Under the pieces are notes generated by a model. It was not told where the DNA came from, made no database searches, and was given only the letters and a program-made list of their open reading frames with translations. From an uncultured Pseudomonadota bacterium (lineage in GTDB: Bacteria; BMS3Abin14), in NCBI GenBank assembly GCA_964454175.1, contig CAYVSA010000012.1, positions 3,208 through 32,137 on the forward strand: DNA of 28,930 nucleotides, written 5' to 3'. Position 1 is the stretch's first letter, and each line of letters begins with the position of its first letter. Shown one piece after another: positions 1,966 through 23,621 of this stretch. A program made the translations under genes and the position numbers.

Positions 1966-2401
1966 ACCGGATCTGCAGCTTATCCTCTCTTTCCACGGGC
2001 ACTACTGCCCCATGGTGCTCATGGGTGCGAGACAGGCCCGGACAGCGGTGAAGGGTTTTGAATTATTGTCGGGGCACTCGGGCCGCGCTTACTCCTTTTA
2101 CAGGGGATATGGATGTGCCCTTGATGGTATCCAGATTTTTAGCGGGTGCACGCTGGGAAATGGCAATTTGACACTGCTGAGGGGAAAGGATTTCTCGCTG
2201 ATTTTCACCTATGAGGGTCTGGACTCTGCTTTCATAGTGAAGCCCCGGGAGGATCTGCTGGTTGAGATCCGAACAAGGTCGAACTCTTCTCTTAATTCTC
2301 CCCTGTCTGAAAGGATCCTGAAGGGAGCTGACGGCGATCTCTTTTCTCTGGATGAGGTTGAGGGAACGGGAGTTATCACCCTTTTCCCGGAGGACGGATG
2401 A
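1955..2401 (+). CDS. FmdE (formylmethanofuran dehydrogenase subunit E)-family protein
   Basis: FHGHYCP...G and CALDGIQIFSGCTLGNGNL are the FmdE signature motifs. Start 1955 preferred over 1937. Confidence 0.85.
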   Translation: MLSEPDLQLILSFHGHYCPMVLMGARQARTAVKGFELLSGHSGRAYSFYRGYGCALDGIQIFSGCTLGNGNLTLLRGKDFSLIFTYEGLDSAFIVKPREDLLVEIRTRSNSSLNSPLSERILKGADGDLFSLDEVEGTGVITLFPEDG

Positions 2402-3351
2402 CCGGCTACCTGGCTGAAGGAATATCGTTATTCGCCAGCGAGCTATGGCTGATGGTGCCCGCCCTGGCAATAGGCGTGGGTGTCGGAGCCTTTATAAAAA
2501 CCTTCCAGTGGGACCTTAAACTCAGGGCACATATGGCCGATAAGGGCAGCTCTACAATTCCCCTGGCCGTTTTTCTTGGACTGTTCAGCCCCCTTTGTGC
2601 CTGCGGCGTGCTGCCGGTGGTAATACCCCTTGCTGTTTCGGGAGTTCCGCTGCCCCCTCTTCTGGCCCTCCTGGCCACATCACCACTTATGAGCCCGGAT
2701 GCCTTCTCAATCACATGGGCGGGGCTTGGACCCACTATGGCCTGGACCAAACTGATCGCCGCGGCGGGTGTGGGAACAATGGTGGGCACTGTAACTTATC
2801 TCCTTGAAAAACGTAATATTTTTTCAGATGAACCGGTGAAAATTAAGCCCGTACACGGTGCTGACGGGAGGGTGGGCACCGCCCTTGAGATCGCCTGTGA
2901 AAATGATATCACCATTCCGAGCATGGTTGTCCAACCAAGGGACAACAGGTTTTTGTTCTTCCTCGATCGTGGAAAAGACCTGCTCCTGTTCATGGGCAAG
3001 TTCCTCGTCATGGCAATCTTCTTGCAGGTGCTGATGGAGATGTTCCTCCCGATGGACGCTGTGCGGTTCCTCGCGGGTAAAGCCGACACGAGTTCCCTGC
3101 TCTGGGCAGCCATTCTCGGCACGCCCCTTCCTGCACACCAGGTTCCCGTCGTGCCGGTTCTCAAGGGCCTGCTGGACCTGGGAATGGACAGGGGGGCAGC
3201 GGTAACCTTTCTTGTGGCCGGTCCTGTTACGAGCCTGCCTGCCCTGGTGGTCCTGTGGAAGATGTTCCACAGGAGGGTTTTCTTCGTATACCTCTCCCTG
3301 TGCCTGGCAGGGGCGGTATTTGCAGGAGCTCTTTACAGGGCATTCATCTGA
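2398..3351 (+). CDS. DUF318/ArsP-like permease
   Basis: Multiple hydrophobic segments with SPLCACGVLP, LLATSPLMSP and GAAVTFLVAGPVTSLP. ATGA overlap with the upstream gene. Confidence 0.85.
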   Translation: MTGYLAEGISLFASELWLMVPALAIGVGVGAFIKTFQWDLKLRAHMADKGSSTIPLAVFLGLFSPLCACGVLPVVIPLAVSGVPLPPLLALLATSPLMSPDAFSITWAGLGPTMAWTKLIAAAGVGTMVGTVTYLLEKRNIFSDEPVKIKPVHGADGRVGTALEIACENDITIPSMVVQPRDNRFLFFLDRGKDLLLFMGKFLVMAIFLQVLMEMFLPMDAVRFLAGKADTSSLLWAAILGTPLPAHQVPVVPVLKGLLDLGMDRGAAVTFLVAGPVTSLPALVVLWKMFHRRVFFVYLSLCLAGAVFAGALYRAFI

Positions 3352-5132: not shown

Positions 5133-6212
5133 ATGAAAAAGCCTTTGTATATCACCTTGTGCAAACATATCTTTGTCCTGTCAACAGCGCTCATCCTGGT
5201 GTCTGTATACGGCTGTGCTGCGCAGAAGACAGTCAAAAAAACCGGATTGGTCACAATCGAGGGGGAGACTCGCTACAACGGCGAAATTCTGCCTGGAGCG
5301 AAAATTGTCGCTTTCAAAGGCAGCCCTCTGGGCGATTTCGTCGAAGCCGATACGGGGCCTGAAGGCGGCTTTATACTCGAACTGGAGAAAGGTTCCTATT
5401 TCATTACGGGGAAAGGCACTGATCCCTCAGATGGCAGGCCTCTGGCAGCTTACTGGGTCGGCAACCCTCTCAATCTATACGGTGCATTTACCGGTAAATT
5501 CATATTACCCTTCGTTCTGGAGACCGATCCGGCTGAGCTGACAGCAGGTGAGGGCATCAGGGGGCACATCCTCAGCCGCGAAAGGCCGGTTGCCGGGGCA
5601 GTTGTTTTTGCCTATCTGGATCTTTCCTCAGAGCTTCACGGTCCTCCATATTCTATTAGTTCCACCTCGGATGAGGATGGCGAGTTCAGCCTCGCGACCA
5701 TGCCGGGCACCTACTTTCTCACAGCACGTAAGCGTCTTGACGGTGTCTCCCGGCAGGGGCCGCTCCTCAAGGGTGACCTGGCAGGCTACTACCCTCACAA
5801 CCCGGTCACCTTGAGGGAAGGTCGGGGACTCTTGCTGGATATTGCCCTCGTAAAGGTCAACCGCCCACGGGGGGAGGGGTCCCTTTCACCTGGCCAGGCG
5901 ATCGTCCTGGAGGGCACTGTGACAGACGAAACGGGTAACCCCGCAAAGGGTGTCAGAGCATATCTTTACAGTACCTCCGATATGATAGGGAGGCCGGCTT
6001 TCATCTCTTCCCTGACAGATGAAAGTGGTCAATACAGGTTGGAAGCTTCCGGCGTTGGAACGTATTATCTTGCTGCGCGCTCCCACATAGGCGGCCCTCC
6101 GGAACCTGGTCAGATGATGGGTTTTTACCAGGGCAGCGATGACCATTCGGTCATTCTGCGATGGGGCAGCCATCTGACCGGGCTTGACATGAAGATCCTC
6201 AAGGTATGGTGA
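5133..6212 (+). CDS. Lipoprotein with repeated carboxypeptidase-regulatory-like beta-sandwich domains (paralog 1)
   Basis: Lipobox VYGC; repeats of type S..TD..G.Y.L....G.YYL.AR...GPP; ends KVW. Confidence 0.8.
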   Translation: MKKPLYITLCKHIFVLSTALILVSVYGCAAQKTVKKTGLVTIEGETRYNGEILPGAKIVAFKGSPLGDFVEADTGPEGGFILELEKGSYFITGKGTDPSDGRPLAAYWVGNPLNLYGAFTGKFILPFVLETDPAELTAGEGIRGHILSRERPVAGAVVFAYLDLSSELHGPPYSISSTSDEDGEFSLATMPGTYFLTARKRLDGVSRQGPLLKGDLAGYYPHNPVTLREGRGLLLDIALVKVNRPRGEGSLSPGQAIVLEGTVTDETGNPAKGVRAYLYSTSDMIGRPAFISSLTDESGQYRLEASGVGTYYLAARSHIGGPPEPGQMMGFYQGSDDHSVILRWGSHLTGLDMKILKVW

Positions 6213-8071
6213 GACTGCTTCTCCTCCTGGCTTTCCTGATGCCTGCATGTGCGGGTCTACCCGTATTGTCCAAGGGCAGCGTTGCTCCTCTGCCCGGAAA
6301 AATAAACGGCAATCTGCAGGTTGCCGGGAAAGTACTCATCCGGGGTACCGTCAGGGTTTCCCCCGGCGCTGAACTCACATTGGCTCCCGGCACAGTAGTC
6401 CTTTTTGAGCCGCGTGACGAGGACGGTGACGGGATCTCCGACACCAGACTCGTGGTTGAAGGGACTATTACCGCCAGAGGTACTCCGCCACTGCCCGTAA
6501 TATTTACGAGCGCAAGTACTGACCCATCTCCCGGCGACTGGCTGGAGATCAGGGTCGACAGGAGCAGCGGCAACGTGTTTGAACACTGTATAGTCGAGTT
6601 CTCCCGGTATGGCCTGCACTCTCACTTCAGCTCCGGTGTTGTCGCTGACAGCATCTTCAGGCGTAATATCGATGGTACCCGTTTCGGAAGGTCCCGCTTT
6701 GTGGTCAGGAACAACCGGTTTGAGGACAACATAGGCAAAGGGATCAATCTGCGCCAATCCCCGGTTTATTTGTACGAAAATTTGATATCGGGCAACAGAC
6801 ACGGCCTCTTCCTGTTTGAAGGGGGCAGCGGTACCGTGTTGGACGGGAACGTTTTTACAGGCAACTCGGCGAGTGATGTTCGCTTGGGTGATTTTTTCAC
6901 GGGCGAGCTGCCCAGATTCGGGCGAAATGCAAAAAATGACGGAAGCGCCCTGCTTTTTGATGGACCCGAAGCGATCTTGAAGGAACTCCCAGACCTGAGC
7001 GAGACCATGCAGTTTTCAGGGCACGCAGGCCCAAGGGTACTCGACGTTTCCCTGGTAAAATTCTGGGAGACTTCTGCAGGTGGGTTTATTGATGCTGCCC
7101 CATTTTCCATGCCCGGCGGGCGAATTGGAGCGGCCACCTGGAACGGAGAGATCCTGCAGATCTCGGGGCAAAACGGTTCGGTTCTCAGAAGGACAGTAAT
7201 TGGTGATGTTGTGGATGCGACACCGGTAGTCTTTGATGAATGGGTCTTTTTTCCTGCCTGGGACCTCAGGGTAAGAAGGGTAGATCTTGATTCAGGCAAG
7301 GTGGATGGTGAGCAAGATTGGCCGCGATCTCCCGCCGACGATCACAGGCAGGGTGATCCTGTCCTGGCGCGGTCAGGATTTGATGGTGCAAGTATCCTGT
7401 TCGGCCTCTGGGACGGTGAGGCCGCTGCCCTGGATCCTGTGAAAATGGTCTGGAAATGGCGCACGCAGCTCGACGGGCCAACAAGGACCGGGGTAGTTTT
7501 TGATGGAGCGAATTTCTGGTTGGGTACGGACGAAGGAACAGTGTATGCGTTAAATCAAAGAGGCGATATTTTCAGAGAAGTGTCCCTGGGGAGCCGGGTC
7601 CGGGCAAAACCTTCCGTACTGGGCAAGGATGACCTTGTTTTTTCAATCTGGGATGGAAGGGTAATTAGGCTCCGAGCCGGTCAGGTCCTCTGGGAAAAGA
7701 AACTCCTGGGAAAAGGAACCTACGCCGGTCCGGTTTCAGGAATTTCTCCTGTAGGCGCGATCGCTGCAGCTGACGGTTCAGGAAATCTCTATCTCTTTGA
7801 TAATGACGGTGTCCTGCTGTGGCGCGTGGGCCTCGGATCTGCTGTTCATACACTATCTATGGCAGATAATATCCTGTGGGCCGGAACACAGAAGGGAGAC
7901 CTTTACGCTGTCAAATCGTCCACGGGCAGGGTGCTGGGCAATCTGCATACGGGAGGCGCGATCCACGGCAGGCCCCTGCACGAATCAGGTACCATGATCT
8001 TCGGGTCGAGGGACGGTTTCCTCAGGGCATTTACAGAGACGGTTACGGAGGCTCCATGGGAATGGAAGTGA
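6206..8071 (+). CDS. Exported right-handed beta-helix (NosD-like) fused to PQQ-like/BamB-type beta-propeller
   Basis: N-terminal Asn/Gly-rich beta-helix turns (NNRFEDNIGKGI, ENLISGNRHGL); C-terminal Trp-docking propeller repeats (GNLYLFDNDGVLLW, IFGSRDGFLRAF). Confidence 0.8.
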   Translation: MVRLLLLLAFLMPACAGLPVLSKGSVAPLPGKINGNLQVAGKVLIRGTVRVSPGAELTLAPGTVVLFEPRDEDGDGISDTRLVVEGTITARGTPPLPVIFTSASTDPSPGDWLEIRVDRSSGNVFEHCIVEFSRYGLHSHFSSGVVADSIFRRNIDGTRFGRSRFVVRNNRFEDNIGKGINLRQSPVYLYENLISGNRHGLFLFEGGSGTVLDGNVFTGNSASDVRLGDFFTGELPRFGRNAKNDGSALLFDGPEAILKELPDLSETMQFSGHAGPRVLDVSLVKFWETSAGGFIDAAPFSMPGGRIGAATWNGEILQISGQNGSVLRRTVIGDVVDATPVVFDEWVFFPAWDLRVRRVDLDSGKVDGEQDWPRSPADDHRQGDPVLARSGFDGASILFGLWDGEAAALDPVKMVWKWRTQLDGPTRTGVVFDGANFWLGTDEGTVYALNQRGDIFREVSLGSRVRAKPSVLGKDDLVFSIWDGRVIRLRAGQVLWEKKLLGKGTYAGPVSGISPVGAIAAADGSGNLYLFDNDGVLLWRVGLGSAVHTLSMADNILWAGTQKGDLYAVKSSTGRVLGNLHTGGAIHGRPLHESGTMIFGSRDGFLRAFTETVTEAPWEWK

Positions 8072-10473
8072 AGGAAAACCGTAACCTTGTCTTCTCAGCC
8101 TTTTTGATGGGCATGGGCGCCATCATCTTCGAGCTGGCCCTCACCAGGATCTTTTCAGTCGTAATGTGGTATCACTTTGCATCCCTTTCAATAGCCCTGG
8201 CGTTATTTGGATTTACTTTCGGGGGAGTGATCGTCTTCCTGAGGCCGTCTCTGGTCCCCGCGGAGAAGCTGACCGGACGCCTCAGTGTCTTTGCACTGGT
8301 CTTTGCCGCCGGCTCAGTTCTTCCATTCCTCTTCCTCTGGTGGGCTAATTCGAGACCTGAACTGCTCTTTCCTGTGATCAGTTTTTTTCACCAACCTTAT
8401 TTTCAGCCCTTCAGGCAGGTTCCTCCGGGTCCCGATGCTTCCATGCTGCTGATCCTTTTTCTGATCTACTCTGTTATTTCTTTGCCCTTTACGGCCGCTG
8501 GCGTTTTTTTTGCGGGACTTTTCATGAGGGCGCCCTCGAAGAAGATAGGCTTGCTATACGGTTCAGATCTTGCGGGAGCGTCCCTGGGTTGCCTTCTGCT
8601 CATTCCGGGCCTTGACCTTGCGGGAGCGCCCTCACTCCTCCTGGCGGCAAGTGCCTTGACCATCATGTCAGCGGCTGTGCTCACCGTCCGCCGATGGAGG
8701 GCACTGCCGGCTGGCCTTGCCCTGCTTCTCCTGGTGGGAGCGATCGTTAACGGCCCGGGAGACACTCTTGCGGGCATCAGGTTTGCCCGAGGCCAGTTCG
8801 AGCCGGAAATAAGCTTTTCCAGGTGGAACGCCATTTCTAGGGTCGTTGTGTACCCTTTAAATACCTGGGAGGCCAGGCAGGCGTGGGGGATAAGCAGAAG
8901 GTACACGGGCCCTATTCCGGAGAACATGGCGATGCTGGTAGATGATGCCGGGTATACACCTATCATTGCCAATCCCGCTGGGGTTGCCTCACCCGAATGG
9001 GCACCCTACCACATCATATCCATGCCCTATATTATCAGGCATGGAGCCAGTGTTGCCATCATCGGACCGGGCGGCGGCCGGGATATCCTGGCTGCGCTGG
9101 GTAACCTGGCAGCGGAGGTTACTGCGGTGGAACTGAACCCCCTCATTGTTGAGGCTGTCGAGGAGCGTTTCAGAGGTTTTTCAGGAGGACCTTATTCTCT
9201 GCCGGGAGTGCGCACGATAATAGGCGAGGGGCGTACTGAACTGGCGAAGATGCACAGGTCCTTTGACATTTTACAGACATCATCCGTGTTTGGTGAGACA
9301 TCTCCTGCGGCAGGTGCTTTCAGCCTCAGTGCGAACTTCCTTTACACAAGAGAAGCGTTTTCAGAGTACTGGGACCTGTTGTCCGATGACGGAATTCTGT
9401 CATTTTCAAGGGCGGTTTTTGGGCGCAGGGCATTGAGATTGACTGTTCTTGCGAGAGACCTTGTCCTGAACAGAGGCGCCGCCTCTCCCGAGCAGAGCAT
9501 AGCGGTTTTCCGGGAGAGGGGCCTTGCAACAGTCCTTATTTCGAGAAGGGCGTTTTCGGCAGATGAGCTCGGATCGCTTTCTGACTTTGCCGCAAGCCGG
9601 GGTTTCAGGGTCGAGGCTTTCCCGGGCGTGGAAACTGGCAGCGCCTTTGAAAAAGTTATAAGGGGCGAGGATGTCACGAGGGGCCGCTTTGACCTGTCCC
9701 CGCCCACTGACGACAGGCCGTTTTTCTATAATAACGTTCCAACTTCTCGTTTTTTAAATATTTTCTTTAAACCTACAGAGGCTGGGGAGAGGCATATAAT
9801 CATACTCAGGACCCTGGCACTGATCATGCTCGTCCTTGTGATCACCCTGATAATTGTTGGTTTTATTGCTCTGCCTGGAACCGAAAACCCCCTGTCGCCG
9901 GCCTCTGTGGCAAGATCATCAGCATATTTTATCGGTATCGGTCTGGGCTATATGCTTTTCGAACTGACGATGATGAACCGGCTGACACTTTTCCTCGGCA
10001 GTCCTGTATATTCCCTGTCAGTAGTGCTGGTGATCCTGCTTCTGACATCTGGTGCAGGCAGTATTATCAGCAGCAGATGGGATGTCAGTAGGGCAAAAAA
10101 CTGCACACTGCTTGCGGTGGCATTGATCTTGCTCTTGCTCATAGTGTGGTTCACCGCCGGTCTGCTGCGCACGGCCCTCGGTGTCGGCCTGCCGGTCCGG
10201 GTTGCCCTCACAGGCCTGTTGATAGGCCCGCCCGGTTTTATAATGGGTATGTTCATGCCGCTGGGACTTAGAGCGCTCAAAAAATCAGCTCCCGGCATCG
10301 TTCCCTGGGCATGGGCGCTTAACGGCGCGGCATCCGTGGCGGGTTCCCTCGGTACCCTTATAATCGCTATGAACTTCGGGTATTCAAGGGCCTTTGCAGT
10401 ATGTGTAGCTTCCTACATGTTGACCCTGCCGTTTCTCAGTTCTCTGTCCGGGAACGGCATGAAAAGGTCATAG
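8062..10473 (+). CDS. Polytopic membrane protein with spermidine-synthase-like class I SAM-binding domain
   Basis: ELALTRIFSV, LYGSDLAGASLG, IIGPGGGRDI, VTAVELNPLIV, LYTREAF, PTDDRPFF, WAWALNGAASVAGS. Start at 8056, 8062 or 8068 (GGAGG 8047-8051); the track's 7876 extension overlaps the previous gene. Confidence 0.85.
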   Translation: MEVKENRNLVFSAFLMGMGAIIFELALTRIFSVVMWYHFASLSIALALFGFTFGGVIVFLRPSLVPAEKLTGRLSVFALVFAAGSVLPFLFLWWANSRPELLFPVISFFHQPYFQPFRQVPPGPDASMLLILFLIYSVISLPFTAAGVFFAGLFMRAPSKKIGLLYGSDLAGASLGCLLLIPGLDLAGAPSLLLAASALTIMSAAVLTVRRWRALPAGLALLLLVGAIVNGPGDTLAGIRFARGQFEPEISFSRWNAISRVVVYPLNTWEARQAWGISRRYTGPIPENMAMLVDDAGYTPIIANPAGVASPEWAPYHIISMPYIIRHGASVAIIGPGGGRDILAALGNLAAEVTAVELNPLIVEAVEERFRGFSGGPYSLPGVRTIIGEGRTELAKMHRSFDILQTSSVFGETSPAAGAFSLSANFLYTREAFSEYWDLLSDDGILSFSRAVFGRRALRLTVLARDLVLNRGAASPEQSIAVFRERGLATVLISRRAFSADELGSLSDFAASRGFRVEAFPGVETGSAFEKVIRGEDVTRGRFDLSPPTDDRPFFYNNVPTSRFLNIFFKPTEAGERHIIILRTLALIMLVLVITLIIVGFIALPGTENPLSPASVARSSAYFIGIGLGYMLFELTMMNRLTLFLGSPVYSLSVVLVILLLTSGAGSIISSRWDVSRAKNCTLLAVALILLLLIVWFTAGLLRTALGVGLPVRVALTGLLIGPPGFIMGMFMPLGLRALKKSAPGIVPWAWALNGAASVAGSLGTLIIAMNFGYSRAFAVCVASYMLTLPFLSSLSGNGMKRS

Positions 10474-10480
10474 ACGAGCG

Positions 10481-10490
10481 AAAGGAGGTG
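10481..10490 (+). promoter_or_regulatory. Very strong Shine-Dalgarno for the small peptide
   Basis: AAAGGAGGTG, 5 nt before ATG 10496. Confidence 0.85.
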
Positions 10491-10495
10491 GCCAG

Positions 10496-10558
10496 ATGAA
10501 AAAGGTCAGATACATCAAGCCACGAGTTGTGGGCAGGTGCAGCGTACATCCGTGCTAA
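10496..10558 (+). CDS. 20-aa small peptide MKKVRYIKPRVVGRCSVHPC; candidate RiPP/cofactor precursor
   Basis: Translated by hand. Full-consensus RBS, ATG-AAA-AAG start, TAA stop, fills the intergenic gap and is followed by a perfect hairpin. Precursor role is inference. Confidence 0.85.
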   Translation: MKKVRYIKPRVVGRCSVHPC

Positions 10559-10559
10559 T

Positions 10560-10591
10560 GGGGAGGGCTGGGGTTTTCCCCAGCCCTCTTC
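10560..10591 (+). other. Strong stem-loop without U-tract directly after the peptide gene
   Basis: GAGGGCTGGGG-tttt-CCCCAGCCCTC, perfect 11 bp (10563-10588), extendable by two G-U and one G-C pair. Confidence 0.8.
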
Positions 10592-10618
10592 AGCTACCAG
10601 AAAGGTTATGGATCACTG

Positions 10619-11668
10619 ATGCGATTTTCCTTTCATATACCTCTAACCCTTCTACTTGCGCTGCTGCCCTCGATTTCGTGGGGCCGGGATATCGGCGTTG
10701 CAGGGTCGACGACCTACATGGGAGAAGCGGTGAGTGGCGTCTACATAGAAGCGTTCACCGAAAGGCCAGAGACCGGCAGTTCTCCAGCGGGCTCCACAAG
10801 CAGCTCTGAAAACGGAGAGTTCACCCTTTATCTGCCCCGCGGAAAGTATTTCATAACAGCCCGCAAGCGGCCCGGGATAGGTACTTCAGCCGGGATGCTC
10901 TACGGTACGTCCGGGGACCAGCCTGTTACCGTGGACAAGACTGTAGTGACTATTTCCCCAATATCCCTGACCGACAGGGGGAGTGTCGGGAAGGGGCCCG
11001 ATTCCGGCCCTGAGGTTACGGGAAAAGTATATTTCGAGAAACGGCCCATTTCAGGAGCGTTTATCTACCTGTATCCTGAAGGCCGCAGGCGCGGCCCGGG
11101 CTATATTTCGAGGGTTCGTTCCGGTGAAGGCGGGCGCTTCACCCTCAGATCTTCCTCCGGGACCTACAATATCACCTCGAGGTTCGGTCCGCGGAGCGAG
11201 GGCCTTGGTTCAGTGAGGGGCGGAGACCTTGTGGGGGAGTCAGCAAACAATCCAGTCAGAGTCGAGGATGGCTCTTTTGACGCGGGAGTGATCGAACTCC
11301 ATAGAGCGGATCCCGGGCTCCTGGCTTCCGATGCATGGGCATCAAGAGAATCCGGCCTTGAGGCCTCAGGAGTTGTAAAGGATGAAGACGGCCGGCCAGT
11401 GAAAGGTATTTATGCGTTTTTGTACAGGGACTACAGGATGGTGGGCAAGCCTGATGCCATATCAGCTCCAACAGGGGAGGATGGTCATTTCCTGGTAACA
11501 GCACCGGGGCCAGGAGCGTATTACCTGGGTGTCAGGAGTAATTATGGCGGCCCGGTGGAGCCGGGTGAGCTTGTGGGTGTCTACGAAAAAAGCGGCAGCA
11601 GGCAGGTAACCCTCGACCCGGGTGAGAACCCGGCATCCTACGAGATTGTCGTAAAGGAAGTCTGGTGA
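10619..11668 (+). CDS. Exported carboxypeptidase-regulatory-like repeat protein (paralog 2)
   Basis: Signal peptide; three repeats (GKYFITARK, GTYNITSR, GAYYLGVR..YGGP); ends EVW. Confidence 0.8.
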   Translation: MRFSFHIPLTLLLALLPSISWGRDIGVAGSTTYMGEAVSGVYIEAFTERPETGSSPAGSTSSSENGEFTLYLPRGKYFITARKRPGIGTSAGMLYGTSGDQPVTVDKTVVTISPISLTDRGSVGKGPDSGPEVTGKVYFEKRPISGAFIYLYPEGRRRGPGYISRVRSGEGGRFTLRSSSGTYNITSRFGPRSEGLGSVRGGDLVGESANNPVRVEDGSFDAGVIELHRADPGLLASDAWASRESGLEASGVVKDEDGRPVKGIYAFLYRDYRMVGKPDAISAPTGEDGHFLVTAPGPGAYYLGVRSNYGGPVEPGELVGVYEKSGSRQVTLDPGENPASYEIVVKEVW

Positions 11669-19442: not shown

Positions 19443-20660
19443 ATGGTGCTCCTACTTGCGCTCGCGTTCTTTTCCGCGATCGGAACTATCATACCCCAGG
19501 GCATGTCAGAGGGCGAATACAACCTCCTCATGGGCAGCAACCTCGCGCGTCTTGTACGTTCCCTGCACCTTGCAGACCTCTTCCACGCTCCGTGGTACCG
19601 ATTTATCCTCGCGAGCCTGATGGTCAATATGCTTGTCTGCATAGTGCTGAGACTCCCTTCAATATTATCCTCCCTGAGCGGTAAAAAGGCACTCATGAAA
19701 AAACCGGTTCTGGAAACGGATGACTCCTCCGAACAGCGGGACCGGATCGCCGATGTCTTGAGGAGGATGGGATTCAAAGAGAGGAGGAGAGGGGCAGTCA
19801 GTGTATTTTCCACGGGAGCAACGGGGTATATTTGCACAGTAATCAGCCACCTGAGCCTCCTCGTGATCATTGGTTTTTCCTTTGCCGGTTCCACCATGGG
19901 ATTCGTCGGGACGCAAAGGGTCTATGTCGGTCAGAGCACTGAAACGTACTACAACTGGAAAGAGCGTTCCGATAAACCTCTTCCCTTTGAACTGTATGTG
20001 GAAGACTTCAATATCACGCCCCATCCGACAGGCGTGAAAATGGGGGTCCTGGAGAAAAATACGGGGCGTAAGGGAAAAGAGATCACCACCCACGTTGGCG
20101 GTACTTTCAGGGTTCCAGGAGTCCACGGGAAGGTAACTGTGACTTCTTTTGATACAGAGAAGAAGACTTACAAGGCGCTCTGGCAAAGCCCCGGCGGTGA
20201 AAGTGTTTCATTTGGTACGGGTGACGAGATCGGTTCATCAGGGGTTACTCTTGTTGTTACGGCATACGCATACTTCCCTGAAAAGGCAGTCGTCGCAACT
20301 ACCGTTCTCAGGGAGGGCAGCAAGGTTCTGAATAGAGGAGACATAGCCCCGAATCAACCGCTGAATTACGAGGGTCTCTTCATCTACCTCACCGATTATG
20401 GCAAGGACAGGTTCGGTTTCCCCTTCGTGGGATATCAGATCGTCAGGGACCCGGGGCGAACAGGTGTATGGACGGGATGCATACTTTTTCTGATATCCGT
20501 AACTGGTGCCATTTTCCTCAGATACAGGTGCGCTGTGCTCAGATCCGATAGCGGGCGTTTATTCGTCCACATTTCAGGGATGAGCAAGAGTGTTGACCCG
20601 GGAGAAGATCTGGCAGCTCTTTTCAGAGACGCCATCGGATATGAGGATCCGTCCCAATGA
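19443..20660 (+). CDS. resB: Cytochrome c biogenesis protein ResB/Ccs1
   Basis: SAIGTIIPQ, DLFHAPWY, NMLVC, HLSLLVI, NQPLNYEG and QIVRDPG are ResB hallmarks. The true start may be upstream (see findings). Confidence 0.85.
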   Translation: MVLLLALAFFSAIGTIIPQGMSEGEYNLLMGSNLARLVRSLHLADLFHAPWYRFILASLMVNMLVCIVLRLPSILSSLSGKKALMKKPVLETDDSSEQRDRIADVLRRMGFKERRRGAVSVFSTGATGYICTVISHLSLLVIIGFSFAGSTMGFVGTQRVYVGQSTETYYNWKERSDKPLPFELYVEDFNITPHPTGVKMGVLEKNTGRKGKEITTHVGGTFRVPGVHGKVTVTSFDTEKKTYKALWQSPGGESVSFGTGDEIGSSGVTLVVTAYAYFPEKAVVATTVLREGSKVLNRGDIAPNQPLNYEGLFIYLTDYGKDRFGFPFVGYQIVRDPGRTGVWTGCILFLISVTGAIFLRYRCAVLRSDSGRLFVHISGMSKSVDPGEDLAALFRDAIGYEDPSQ

Positions 20661-22222
20661 AATTAAACTGGACGAACAAGATAATGCTCTATTCTACGGT
20701 ACTGATCGCTCTTGCAGTCCTCATGACAACCTACATTACATACAGGACGGCAGCGGGTCTCTGGGAAAAGGAGTTTCTGGAAAGGAACGCCGCCTACGCG
20801 AAGTACACATCCCTGGATGTTCTCAGGATATTCGGGAGCAATTTCGATGGTGTAGAAAATGAAGCTCTCGCGGGCGAGATCAGTAATTTGACGGATTTTA
20901 ACAGCGATCTGCAAGGTGTCATGATCCTGACTCAGAGCGGCCGGGTCCTCTTCAAAACCCTTTCAGAGAATATCATGGATTCTCTGGACAGGACCTGGCC
21001 GGACGGACTGCCATCGGCAGTGAGGAAGGTAGTGAGGACGGGCCAACCCGTGACGATGAAAGGACGGTCCGGCGATCACCAGACACTTGACGTCCTGTCC
21101 CCTGTTTCGGGGCAGGGAGGTACGAGGCCGGTTGCTGTCCGGTATATTTTTTCCTACGAATCCCTTGATGTGAAGACCGCCGGTCTCATACGAAGGGCTG
21201 TTGCAGGTGCAGGCGCGCTCCTGGCTGTAACTCTTCTCCTGTCAACCCTGCTCTCCCGGCGTCTCGTCAGGCCGGTAAGGGCCCTTTCCCTCGGAGCTGC
21301 CAGGATAGCTGCCGGTGACGGGGACCACAGGATCGGAGTGGATACTGGAGACGAGCTTGAAAGCCTGGCCGATGAGTTCAACAGCATGGTGGATGCTCTT
21401 AAAGACCAGCAGGGGGACCTGGAAACCGCCAATCTGGAACTGGAAAAAGCCAACCGCCACCTGGTGGGCCTTCAGGATCAACTCCTGCGTTCAGAGCGCC
21501 TTGCGGCTCTTGGCCAGCTGTCGGCTGGAGTGTCCCACGAGCTTGACAACCCTGTGGGCGTCATACTTGGTTACGCCGAGCTGCTGGAGGAGGAGCTAAG
21601 AGACAGTACTGCACCCAAAGAATACGCAGCTGCAATACTTGCCGAGGCCAAGCGCTGCAAGAGAATAATTGCAGGTCTTCTGGACTTCTCGCGGCCCACT
21701 CGGGGAGAGTTGCAGCGGATCGATCTCAGGTTGATGATATCCGACTTCCTGGATCAACTCGGGTCCCAGAGAGCTTTTCGAAATATAAATATTGATTTTG
21801 CCTCCGAGGAGGATTGCTGTCTGGTGGAAGCGGATCCCGATTCTCTTCGGCAGATCTTTCTGAACCTTTCTCTGAACTCCGCACAGGCTATGGGGGAGGC
21901 TGGTTCTATCTCACTGGTGATTCGTCCTGAGGGGAATGGAAGCGCGCATGGGTTCCTCATATCTTTCGCCGACACAGGTCCTGGCGTTCCGGATGAACTT
22001 GTGTGCAGGATCTTCGATCCATTCTTCAGCACGAAAAGAAGAGGTGAAGGCACAGGGCTTGGACTGGCAATTTGCCGCAAGCTGGTAGAAGAGGCAGGCG
22101 GCTGGATAGAAGTTCGACCTGCACGAGGTGAAGGCGGAACTTTCCTGGTCTGGCTGCCGTCGGTTCCTCTGGAGAGTTCCGATCAACAGCCGGGAACCCT
22201 GAAACAGACGGGTAGTGAATAA
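20657..22222 (+). CDS. Membrane sensor histidine kinase (HAMP, NtrB-like)
   Basis: Two TM segments, HAMP (GDELESLADEFNSM), H-box GVSHELDNP, N-box QIFLNLSLNS, DTGPG, FDPFFSTK, GTGLGL. Confidence 0.95.
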   Translation: MKLNWTNKIMLYSTVLIALAVLMTTYITYRTAAGLWEKEFLERNAAYAKYTSLDVLRIFGSNFDGVENEALAGEISNLTDFNSDLQGVMILTQSGRVLFKTLSENIMDSLDRTWPDGLPSAVRKVVRTGQPVTMKGRSGDHQTLDVLSPVSGQGGTRPVAVRYIFSYESLDVKTAGLIRRAVAGAGALLAVTLLLSTLLSRRLVRPVRALSLGAARIAAGDGDHRIGVDTGDELESLADEFNSMVDALKDQQGDLETANLELEKANRHLVGLQDQLLRSERLAALGQLSAGVSHELDNPVGVILGYAELLEEELRDSTAPKEYAAAILAEAKRCKRIIAGLLDFSRPTRGELQRIDLRLMISDFLDQLGSQRAFRNINIDFASEEDCCLVEADPDSLRQIFLNLSLNSAQAMGEAGSISLVIRPEGNGSAHGFLISFADTGPGVPDELVCRIFDPFFSTKRRGEGTGLGLAICRKLVEEAGGWIEVRPARGEGGTFLVWLPSVPLESSDQQPGTLKQTGSE

Positions 22223-22234
22223 GGGAGTTGGAAA

Positions 22235-23590
22235 ATGGGCAAAAAGATCCTTATTGTTGATGATGAACCCGGGATGAGGGGACTGCTTGACCGGGTCATG
22301 GAAAAGGAGGGTCACTTCTCATCATCTGTTGATGGCGCGGCCGAAGCACTTCGATTGATCCAGGAGGAAGAGTGGCACCTGGTTATCACGGACATCGACA
22401 TGCCAGGTATGGATGGCATCGAGCTTCTAAAGCGCATCCGATCAATTTCTTCGGATCTGCCCGTGGTAGTCATAACGGCCTACGCTACTGTGGAAAGTGC
22501 TGTGGAAGCGATGAAACTCGGTGCCGAGGATTATGTCACCAAACCATTTCAGACCGATGAGCTTAAAATAGTGGTGTCCAGGGTATTTGAGAGGGTGAGG
22601 ATACTTTCTGAAAAGAACATGCTCCTTGACCAGATAAGCAGCCATTATGATCTTAAGGGGATAGTCTGTGATTCGAGGTCAATGAAGGATGTCCTGGACC
22701 TGGCCCTGAGCGTGGCCTCCTCGAATGCGAGTGTGCTCCTCGAAGGTGAGAGCGGGACGGGCAAGGAGCTTCTGGCAAGGGCCATTCATGAGAACAGTAC
22801 CAGGTCCGACAAACCTTTCGTTGTTGTAAACTGCGGCGCCCTGGCCGAGGGAGTCCTTGAAAGCGAGCTTTTCGGACACGAGAAAGGAGCATTTTCCGGC
22901 GCAATTGCCACCAAGAAGGGGAGGTTCGAACTGGCAGATAAAGGGACCCTTTTCATCGATGAGGTCGGTGAATTAAACCCCGGCGCCCAGGTAAAGCTCC
23001 TTCGCTTCCTCCAGGAGAGCGAGTTTGAAAGAGTTGGAGGGACCAGGGTGTTAAAGAGCGATGCCAGGATCATCACTGCAACCAACCGTAATTTGCGGGA
23101 CCTTTTAAAGGTGGGTAGTTTCCGGGAGGATCTGTTCTACCGTCTTAATGTGGTTAATGTCAGGGTCCCTTCCCTCAGAAACCGCAGGGAGGACATAAAG
23201 CCCCTTGCCCAGCATTTTCTGAAGAAATACTCCCTGGAGATGAATAAACGCCTCGAGGGGGTCTCCCCGGAGGTGCTGGTGGCCCTGGAGGCGTACGACT
23301 GGGAGGGTAATGTCAGGGAACTGGAAAACGTAATTGAGCGTGCTGTTGTGCTGTGTAAGAGGGACCAGATCACCATGATAGACCTTCCCGAAGAACTCAG
23401 GGGACTGCAGGCGGATGAGGCTGCCTCCTCCGGCGAGAGGACCCTGCCTGACATGATGGAGGCGATCGAAAGACAGATCCTTGTCAGGACGCTGGCCGAA
23501 AACAGCGGCAGCCAGACGAAAACAGCAGCGGAACTGGGTCTGAAGAGGACTACTTTACGCTACAAGATGGCTAAATACGGGATCCTGTGA
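22235..23590 (+). CDS. Sigma54-dependent response regulator (NtrC/AtoC family)
   Basis: Receiver (ILIVDDE, TDIDMPGMDG, KPF); GESGTGKE, ESELFGHEKGAFSGA, LFIDEVGE, FREDLFYRLNV, WEGNVRELEN; Fis-type HTH. Confidence 0.97.
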   Translation: MGKKILIVDDEPGMRGLLDRVMEKEGHFSSSVDGAAEALRLIQEEEWHLVITDIDMPGMDGIELLKRIRSISSDLPVVVITAYATVESAVEAMKLGAEDYVTKPFQTDELKIVVSRVFERVRILSEKNMLLDQISSHYDLKGIVCDSRSMKDVLDLALSVASSNASVLLEGESGTGKELLARAIHENSTRSDKPFVVVNCGALAEGVLESELFGHEKGAFSGAIATKKGRFELADKGTLFIDEVGELNPGAQVKLLRFLQESEFERVGGTRVLKSDARIITATNRNLRDLLKVGSFREDLFYRLNVVNVRVPSLRNRREDIKPLAQHFLKKYSLEMNKRLEGVSPEVLVALEAYDWEGNVRELENVIERAVVLCKRDQITMIDLPEELRGLQADEAASSGERTLPDMMEAIERQILVRTLAENSGSQTKTAAELGLKRTTLRYKMAKYGIL

Positions 23591-23605: not shown

Positions 23606-23621
23606 TGGTACAGACATTGCT
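23606..23621 (+). promoter_or_regulatory. Putative sigma54 (-24/-12) promoter
   Basis: TGGTACAGACATTGCT, one mismatch from TGGCAC-N5-TTGCW, 16 nt after the activator's stop codon. Confidence 0.7.

Follow-up and report, generated by a model that had tools for sequence, protein, structure and literature searches.

A conserved 20-codon gene that most likely encodes a precursor peptide of the GeoRSP radical SAM/SPASM system

The mycofactocin pathway (MftA/MftB/MftC) combines a very short precursor, with its business end at the extreme C-terminus, with a PqqD-family chaperone and a radical S-adenosylmethionine (rSAM) enzyme of the SPASM type. MftA ends in Val-Tyr, and the product, mycofactocin, is a cofactor and not an antibiotic. 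The pathway to pyrroloquinoline quinone (PQQ) likewise pairs a short precursor with a PqqD chaperone and an rSAM/SPASM enzyme, and some genomes carry multiple copies of the precursor gene. In the GeoRSP system (TIGR04302, TIGR04303 and TIGR04304), only the enzymes have been named in the catalogue. Here, we describe a small open reading frame (sORF) of 20 codons in a 28,930-nucleotide (nt) stretch of DNA from an uncultured Pseudomonadota bacterium (genome G000, contig C12, positions 3208–32137). This whole stretch is referred to as the window, and coordinates are window positions unless a contig or locus is named. Of the two GeoRSP precursor (substrate) peptides of this genome, one is most likely encoded by the sORF, which would thus be an unannotated gene that is translated. 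The peptide, its dispersed gene copies and a frame of YedE, cysteine desulfurase and carrier genes are additions to the catalogued system. We found no paper on the GeoRSP system, its substrate or its product in the paper library searched, although a supplementary table that lists the enzyme family could exist. A search on the combination of rSAM, PqqD, YedE and selenium returned nothing on GeoRSP in the portions of the sources available, and VHPC motifs turned up in unrelated uses only; PMC10288494 mentions neither Geobacter nor selenium.

The sORF lies on the forward strand at 10496–10558, with its ATG at 10496 and a TAA stop codon at 10556–10558, and translates to MKKVRYIKPRVVGRCSVHPC. It is preceded by a consensus Shine–Dalgarno (SD) sequence, AAAGGAGGTG (10481–10490), at a spacing of 5 nt from the ATG, and followed by a GC-rich hairpin (10559–10592) that begins at the first base past the stop codon and has a TTTT loop and no T-tract. 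RNAfold gave 15 pairs for this hairpin, including two G-U pairs and an 11-bp perfect core, and the intergenic fold had a z of -2.6. An earlier note on this DNA had pointed out a full-consensus ribosome-binding site, a 20-codon ORF and an 11-bp hairpin after the stop; reading and translating the sequence bore out all three, the 11 bp being the perfect core of the larger hairpin. A terminator scan of 9800–11200 yielded 0 sites; because of this, and because the T-tract is missing, the hairpin is not a canonical intrinsic terminator. Rfam gave nothing at threshold for 10300–10750, the best of three sub-threshold small RNA matches scoring 20 bits against a gathering score of 45. Among sequencing runs, no RNA run was listed as containing the sequence, and one DNA metagenome run contained a fraction of 0.21 of its words. 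One other ORF touches the stretch (10537–10809), in a different frame and overlapping the start of the next real gene, which begins 60 nt past the sORF stop.

A lone 20-codon ORF is within chance expectation, and it is conservation that raises this one above chance. Orthologous loci were retrieved via the membrane protein encoded upstream, not via the peptide, and orthologues of this protein were found in 8 genomes of the same family at 54–57% identity. The sORF was present at the same place in 8/8 of these synteny-defined loci, with 20 codons and 11 nt past the membrane-protein gene, and the block GCACGAAAGGAGGT ahead of it was preserved in the eight loci. The consensus of the eight orthologues was M/V-[KR]-K-x-R-Y-[IV]-[RK]-P-x-x-V-G-[ST]-S-S-V-H-P-C-stop. 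A GC hairpin follows the sORF in all of them, its position kept and its sequence different from that in the window. Over the nine sequences, variable columns fell on codon positions 1, 2 and 3 in the ratio 7/7/14. Pairwise codon differences were mainly synonymous (196 synonymous versus 152 non-synonymous, where the synonymous count includes the stop codon, with TAA versus TGA scored as synonymous), compared to the 23% synonymous expected from random single-base changes. The sORF is a coding sequence under purifying selection. Both the conserved sORF at syntenic loci and the codon-level conservation had been proposed as checks in the earlier note, and both were found.

The wider peptide family was collected by scanning one genome per prokaryote species with the degenerate DNA pattern Y-[hydrophobic]-x-P-x-Φ-Φ-G-x3-Φ-H-P-C-stop. 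The Tyr, Pro, Gly and His-Pro-Cys were imposed by this pattern and are not countable as findings. At least 123 copies in at least 120 loci matched, all of them 17–23 amino acids (aa) long and ending in VHPC or IHPC followed by a stop. The family counts given here and below hold among the matches listed. The record titles of these matches named Desulfuromonadales, Geobacteraceae, Nitrospirae/Thermodesulfovibrionia, unclassified "Deltaproteobacteria" and a few others. Together with the window copy, the second copy in the same genome and the eight orthologous loci (L002–L009), the listed matches made up a set of 133 copies, in which two places were counted twice (L007/L107 and L008/L110). Several properties of this set were not imposed by the pattern: the start codon lies 2–5 residues ahead of the Tyr and is followed by Lys/Arg, the length stays within 17–23 aa, and an SD-like word occurs no more than 20 nt upstream in 126/133 copies. 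The stop codon is TGA in 91 copies, TAA in 36 and TAG in 6. For the 125 copies with sufficient flanking sequence, a hairpin was found within 60 nt downstream in 107, compared to 69 of 125 upstream control stretches; a hairpin followed by a T-run was found in 54, compared to 9 of the controls. The median folding energy was -25.6 kcal/mol downstream of the peptide and -13.5 kcal/mol in the upstream controls.

The second copy in the source genome is canonical. It encodes MKKRYIKPKVVGTSSVHPC on contig C85 (L165 4639–4695, minus strand), and it has an SD sequence of its own; the region upstream is rich in AT, and a hairpin resembling a terminator, complete with T-run, comes after it. The gene ahead of it encodes a 780-aa Big_1/invasin-like protein with a lipoyl-like C-terminus. 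No model in Pfam-A or NCBIfam 20.0 matched the peptide at E up to 10, and four exact 20-aa sequences, two of them from a cultured Geobacter, were absent from 15 billion predicted proteins, a collection that may exclude very short products. Gene callers miss genes of such size.

A set of loci independent of the peptide pattern was obtained via the rSAM protein alone (n = 28, at least 50% identity). A small ORF directly follows the rSAM gene in 13/28 of these rSAM-anchored loci, and the Y-x-x-P, the Gly and the [VI]-H-P-C-stop hold in all 13 copies. These include variants that lie outside the search pattern (...YMKPRITGSSNVHPC, ...YQKPRVVGSSNVHPC, ...YIKPSITGQSSVHPC, ...YVKPRVTGQSSVHPC, ...YVKPRIAGTSSVHPC and ...YIQPKIVGSSSIHPC). 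A more distant genome from another family, G022, encodes the peptides YFSPKIVASSYIHPC and YMKPAIIKTSYIHPC, which are without the conserved Gly. A diverged, Gly-less peptide, MKIKYMKPAIIKTSYIHPC, is likewise listed for G022 (loci L167, L168 and L175), whose rSAM protein scores 420 bits.

The enzymes that would act on the peptide are encoded on the same contig. A GeoRSP cassette lies on the same strand at C12:33351–38127, just beyond the end of the window and about 21 kb downstream of the sORF. It encodes a YedE-family putative selenium transporter (TIGR04112, 368 bits, cut-off 200), a PqqD-family chaperone directly upstream of the rSAM gene (TIGR04302, 79.1 bits, cut-off 100; Pfam PqqD, 56.6 bits), the rSAM/SPASM protein itself (C12:34737–35762; TIGR04303, 412.5 bits, cut-off 400, covering positions 1–325 of 325), a SPASM-only partner directly after it (TIGR04304, 80.9 bits in the C-terminal half only, cut-off 300), a protein of a cysteine desulfurase family (TIGR01977, 400 bits, cut-off 377) and a selenium/sulfur carrier (Se_S_carrier, PF11823, 62 bits). 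The cysteine desulfurase scored 296 bits against the selenocysteine-lyase model, which has a cut-off of 525. The rSAM protein contains a CNFGCQHC motif and eight further C-terminal Cys, while the SPASM-only partner is without a CxxxCxxC motif and has seven Cys in its C-terminal SPASM region. We assign this enzyme set to the GeoRSP system, since TIGR04303 is matched above its cut-off, the usual order of the three adjacent genes is kept, and the other two proteins match the GeoRSP models best. Elsewhere in the genome (G000:C134:180–1109), a SelD gene (342 bits) has one in-frame TGA, presumably corresponding to the selenocysteine (Sec) form, and thus the organism uses selenium and decodes Sec. 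The earlier note had allowed that the extended locus might contain no modifying enzyme or RRE (RiPP recognition element, where RiPP denotes a peptide that is made by the ribosome and modified after translation); the PqqD-family and rSAM/SPASM genes are both there.

In this genome, the stretch that begins with the window's first gene and closes with the carrier gene (C12:3208–38127) is a run of 33 co-directional genes, with peptide and cassette as two ends of one array. The array is collinear gene for gene in three other genomes (G004, G005 and G011) at 31–80% protein identity, and the distance between peptide and rSAM genes is 21–23 kb on one contig in 4 genomes. In other loci, the coupling is closer. 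When the six cassette proteins of the source genome were mapped onto all loci, 16 of 128 displayed the invariant order YedE, PqqD, rSAM, peptide, SPASM-only, cysteine desulfurase on one strand, and the same order around the peptide was found in 13/28 of the rSAM-anchored loci. In several complete Geobacterales genomes, peptide genes are found on either side of the rSAM gene, no more than about 10–30 kb away, for example in G072, with peptide genes at 331748, 350365, 351572 and 371585 and the rSAM gene at 341833.

Peptide and enzyme also occur together across genomes. In a sample of 61 genomes, comprising the source genome, 15 members of its family and 45 genomes from other families, the numbers with both, peptide only, enzyme only and neither were 10/0/2/49. 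The strict pattern matched nine of these genomes, in 9/9 of which the rSAM protein scored at least 323 bits. Three further genomes had the rSAM protein: G022, with its diverged peptides, and G001 and G012, without a match. Among 121 Geobacterales genomes, TIGR04303 was matched above its cut-off in 42, and a looser peptide pattern matched 43, with 1–6 copies each, while a reversed control pattern matched 0; the corresponding numbers were 41/2/1/77. Three copies are present in the cultured strain Geobacter hydrogenophilus DSM 13691. Presence is thus patchy within the Geobacterales, and peptide and enzyme track each other. The suggestion in the earlier note that the sORF is a RiPP-type precursor gains support from the PqqD-family and rSAM/SPASM genes on the same contig, from the copies embedded in the cassette and from this co-occurrence.

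Several observations weigh against the assignment of the sORF as a GeoRSP precursor gene. The PqqD and SPASM-only proteins score under the NCBIfam cut-offs (79 versus 100 and 81 versus 300 bits), in this genome 21 kb separate the peptide gene from those of the enzymes, and no leader peptidase or exporter was identified. The core of the window copy is atypical, with an Arg at position -7, found in 3/133 copies, and an extra Cys at -6, found in 1/133, where the eight orthologues have [ST]-S; the window copy could therefore be a diverging paralogue of the canonical C85 copy. G001, which is 100% complete, has the full cassette and no peptide by three patterns or near the cassette, and G012 (78% complete) has the enzyme and no pattern match. 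In these two genomes, allowing the strict pattern 3 mismatches produced a single spurious match, and all three matches to a loose P...HPC-stop pattern ended in TGG; the surroundings of the G001 cassette contained no small ORF with a Y..P motif. Such relaxed patterns were applied only to the three relatives that had the enzyme and no strict-pattern peptide, and not to the 49 negatives. Among the Geobacterales, G113 has the enzyme without a pattern match, and two small assemblies, G119 (1.7 Mb) and G128 (2.6 Mb), have the peptide without the enzyme. Because kin are not independent, the co-occurrence tables overstate the support and are not to be read as probabilities.

If the peptide is a GeoRSP substrate, its Lys/Arg-rich N-terminus with the sequence Y-x-K-P-x-V-V-G would act as a leader that is bound by the PqqD-family chaperone, serving as the RRE. 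The proposed leader in the window copy comprises M1–G13 (with Y6-x-x-P9-x-V11) and the proposed core R14–C20 (both within 10496–10558, forward strand), the probable boundary between G13 and R14 being placed from the conserved Gly. The chaperone would present the C-terminal [S/T][S/A]-x-V-H-P-C tail to the rSAM/SPASM enzyme and its SPASM-only partner, while YedE, the cysteine desulfurase and the carrier would probably supply sulfur or selenium, either for this chemistry or for the peptide's Cys. With Y-x-x-P-x-[V/I/L], the leader conforms to the motif [Y/W]xxPx[L/V/I/F/A], which, according to PMC13381572, is recognized by the discrete RREs of lasso peptide systems; the same source states that a second RiPP family requires YxxP for binding to the RRE. 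The reading of Y-x-x-P-x-hydrophobic as a leader in the earlier note agrees with this. The likeness to lasso peptides extends no further, as the cassette is without a macrolactam synthetase or leader protease and the tailoring enzyme is a radical SAM protein. A lasso peptide was rejected, as the window peptide is without any Asp or Glu acceptor; for the 133 copies, neither residue is among the top residues at positions -8, -7, -6 and -4 to -1 of the logo, and Asp occurs at -5 in 8/133.

The characterized families that scored best with the rSAM enzyme were AhbD (171 bits), MftC (166.6 bits) and NirJ (162 bits), and the nearest solved structures were those of SkfB (6efn, E = 5.5e-22), SuiB and PqqE (6c8v, E = 2.2e-11). 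Both AhbD and MftC catalyze oxidative decarboxylations, in the case of MftC at a C-terminal residue. In view of these family scores and structures, the simplest predictions for the chemistry would be that a thioether links the terminal Cys with a residue upstream of it, or that this Cys undergoes oxidative decarboxylation with cyclization, in either case with or without the incorporation of sulfur or selenium. A Cys-to-carbon thioether would be the simplest chemistry, since the Cys of the substrate is invariant. It would also resemble the sactipeptide and ranthipeptide maturases, among which SkfB is a Cys-to-carbon thioether synthase. In contrast to those systems, however, the single conserved Cys is the last residue here, the precursor is only 17–23 aa long, the PqqD protein is separate, and the cassette includes a sulfur/selenium supply module.

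The differences from the two cofactor pathways are equally distinct. The score with MftC is far under its cut-off of 265 bits, and the cassette is without equivalents of MftD, MftE and MftF; instead, it includes a second, SPASM-only protein and the supply module. An identity with MftA was rejected, since the peptide ends in Pro-Cys and has no NCBIfam match. Compared to the PQQ pathway, the core lacks Glu and Tyr, and no PqqB, PqqC or PqqF was observed within the cassette. An identity with PqqA was rejected as well: there is no Glu, the only Tyr is in the leader, and no PqqA model matched at E up to 10. The system would be of a known kind in its rSAM/SPASM and RRE-based maturation, and new in its very short precursor (at 17–23 aa among the shortest RiPP-type precursors known to us), its invariant His-Pro-Cys end, its dispersed multi-copy genes and its sulfur/selenium supply frame.

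Much of the same evidence could also be accommodated if the peptide were translated as part of the system and left unmodified by the rSAM enzyme. It would then be a small carrier or chaperone, whose C-terminal His-Pro-Cys holds a persulfide or perselenide from the desulfurase, or a soft metal, for exported proteins. The retention of the C-terminal His, Pro and Cys in 13/13 embedded copies found without the peptide pattern would be expected of such a carrier, as would the constant association of the cassette with YedE and its frequent association with a cysteine desulfurase and a selenium/sulfur carrier, the use of selenium by the organism, and the metal and redox proteins that adjoin the copies. 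We nevertheless regard a carrier as unlikely, since the combination of an RRE-type leader motif with a PqqD-family chaperone that is always present is a hallmark of substrate delivery to an rSAM enzyme, and the peptide gene lies where precursors are typically encoded, between the rSAM and SPASM genes. In part, the roles of carrier and substrate overlap, and a carrier step could precede modification.

The hairpin raises the question of whether the sORF is a regulatory leader peptide, whose translation, together with the hairpin, tunes the transcription or translation of the downstream CarboxypepD_reg genes. The hairpin starts one base past the stop codon, most copies in the family are followed by one (in 54 of 125 cases with a T-run), and the next gene is close. 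However, regulation of this kind does not account for the conservation of the amino acids across phyla, including the last three residues, for the embedding of the peptide in the enzyme cassette in 16 and 13 loci, or for the near-perfect co-occurrence with one enzyme family. Furthermore, the genes downstream vary between copies; no search for an alternative antiterminator fold was made. Strong hairpins are common after the genes of highly expressed precursors. We therefore consider a regulatory leader very improbable.

That there is no 20-aa gene at all, and that the sORF arose by chance above an RNA element or is the site of selenoprotein read-through with the hairpin as a Sec insertion sequence (SECIS), can be practically dismissed, in spite of the TGA that ends 91/133 copies ahead of a hairpin and the decoding of Sec by the organism, because the codon-position pattern is that of a coding region, Rfam gave no match, the stop is TAA here and TAA or TAG in 42/133 copies, and no conserved frame continues past it.

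The neighborhood of the copies suggests where the product of a GeoRSP precursor might be used. Neighbor families were derived by clustering around 132 oriented copies. Exported CarboxypepD_reg proteins are encoded near the peptide in 52/132 copies, 39 of the proteins lying within 400 nt. Giant multihaem cytochromes are found directly upstream in 38 loci, with members of a second cytochrome cluster in a further 9, and the membrane protein family of the window is found upstream of the peptide in 11 loci. A SPASM/radical SAM cluster lies within a few hundred bases of the peptide in 16 loci, and cysteine desulfurase, YedE and PqqD genes are nearby in 11, 10 and 5 loci, respectively. The product would be a small modified peptide or peptide-derived molecule that is used with the exported and redox proteins beside the scattered gene copies. 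Judging from these surroundings, a role as cofactor or metal ligand would be more likely than one as antibiotic: copies beside cytochromes and exported proteins would fit such a role, and a secreted antibiotic would fit less well. A more specific proposal, which we put forward tentatively and think less probable than its negation, is that the peptide is the precursor of a new sulfur- or selenium-bearing, peptide-derived redox cofactor or metal ligand, with gene copies placed beside giant multihaem cytochromes and exported beta-helix and transthyretin-like proteins so that supply follows demand.

Directly upstream of the sORF, on the same strand, is the gene for a polytopic membrane protein with a central spermidine-synthase-like domain (8056–10473, about 805 aa). 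The longest ORF extends from 7876 to 10473 (865 aa); judging from the N-termini of the orthologues, the start is probably at 8056 rather than at 7876. The protein has no Pfam or NCBIfam family. When its profile was compared to solved chains, spermidine synthase (1INL) was matched with E = 3.3e-5 over positions 327–450, between membrane segments. It ends in PWAWAxNGAASV, which is invariant in 9 sequences. A Sec codon in the G005 orthologue was considered and rejected, as the in-frame TGA lies upstream of the conserved start. A fused membrane/spermidine-synthase protein is encoded about 1.2 kb upstream of the peptide in five other loci. In one Desulfuromonadaceae locus (L045), an IS200-like transposase gene (5572–6633) is located between the fused gene and the peptide gene.

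The gene downstream of the sORF (10619–11668, forward strand) encodes an exported, transthyretin-like CarboxypepD_reg protein, the first of several paralogues in the array. The downstream CarboxypepD_reg proteins have signal-peptide-like N-termini and few Cys or His; none of the conserved columns in these proteins is Cys or His, only Gly, Tyr, Asp and Pro columns being conserved. The first part of the array encodes a 283-aa protein of unknown type, an AAA ATPase, FmdE, an ArsP-like permease and an FG-GAP protein. Also encoded are several CarboxypepD_reg and NosD-like beta-helix proteins, OpuAC-like and phosphonate-type binding proteins, DUF362, polyferredoxins, a ResB-like protein, a kinase and sigma-54 regulator, an EB_dh haem protein and a HEAT-repeat protein, followed by the YedE/GeoRSP cassette. 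The ArsP-type permease (2398–3351) weakly matches two efflux families, SO_0444 (copper/zinc, 95 bits) and SaoE (92 bits), with both scores far under the cut-offs. Both families are linked to selenoprotein-associated metal or metalloid handling in a 2026 review (PMC13188914). The earlier note had associated the peptide with a U32 pair encoded nearby. One Peptidase_U32 gene is indeed present, weakly UbiU/TrhP-like and extending into the window at positions 1–117 (L164 2131–3300), while the next ORF (118–969) had no family match, and nothing connects the U32-family gene to the peptide.

Two sigma-54-type promoter-like elements mark the array. The first, TGGCAT-N5-TTGCT (10118–10133, forward strand, one mismatch), is contained in the 3' end of the gene for the membrane protein, 378 nt upstream of the start of the sORF, and is found at -367 to -378 in 9/9 loci of the family. 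It forms an island of conservation with unconserved flanks, in which 12/16 columns are invariant, compared to a mean of 4.6; only 12/833 coding windows reach 12. The second, TGGTAC-N5-TTGCT (23606–23621, forward strand), comes right after the response-regulator gene, where the series of genes terminating in the GeoRSP cassette begins, and is present at the same place in G004, G005 and G011. The annotated GTG start of the next gene (23587) may be wrong, since that gene would overlap this element. Between the two elements lie the genes for a sensor histidine kinase and a sigma-54-dependent response regulator (20657–23590, forward strand), which are collinear in the same three genomes. This arrangement suggests that peptide and enzymes may be under joint sigma-54 control. 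Outside the source family, such an element was found within 500 nt upstream of the peptide in 4/103 loci, and the element is thus lineage-specific.

The conserved gene of 17–23 aa would provide a concrete substrate for the catalogued, orphan GeoRSP enzymes and makes the system testable. The system is common in metal-reducing Geobacterales (42/121 genomes) and is also found in Nitrospirota-type and other anaerobes. If the proposal of a sulfur- or selenium-bearing product is true, the peptide would give rise to a new small-molecule component of extracytoplasmic electron transfer or metal handling in Geobacter-type and related anaerobes, and a new cofactor or ligand beside multihaem cytochromes would be relevant both to electron transfer outside the cell and to the biology of selenium or sulfur.

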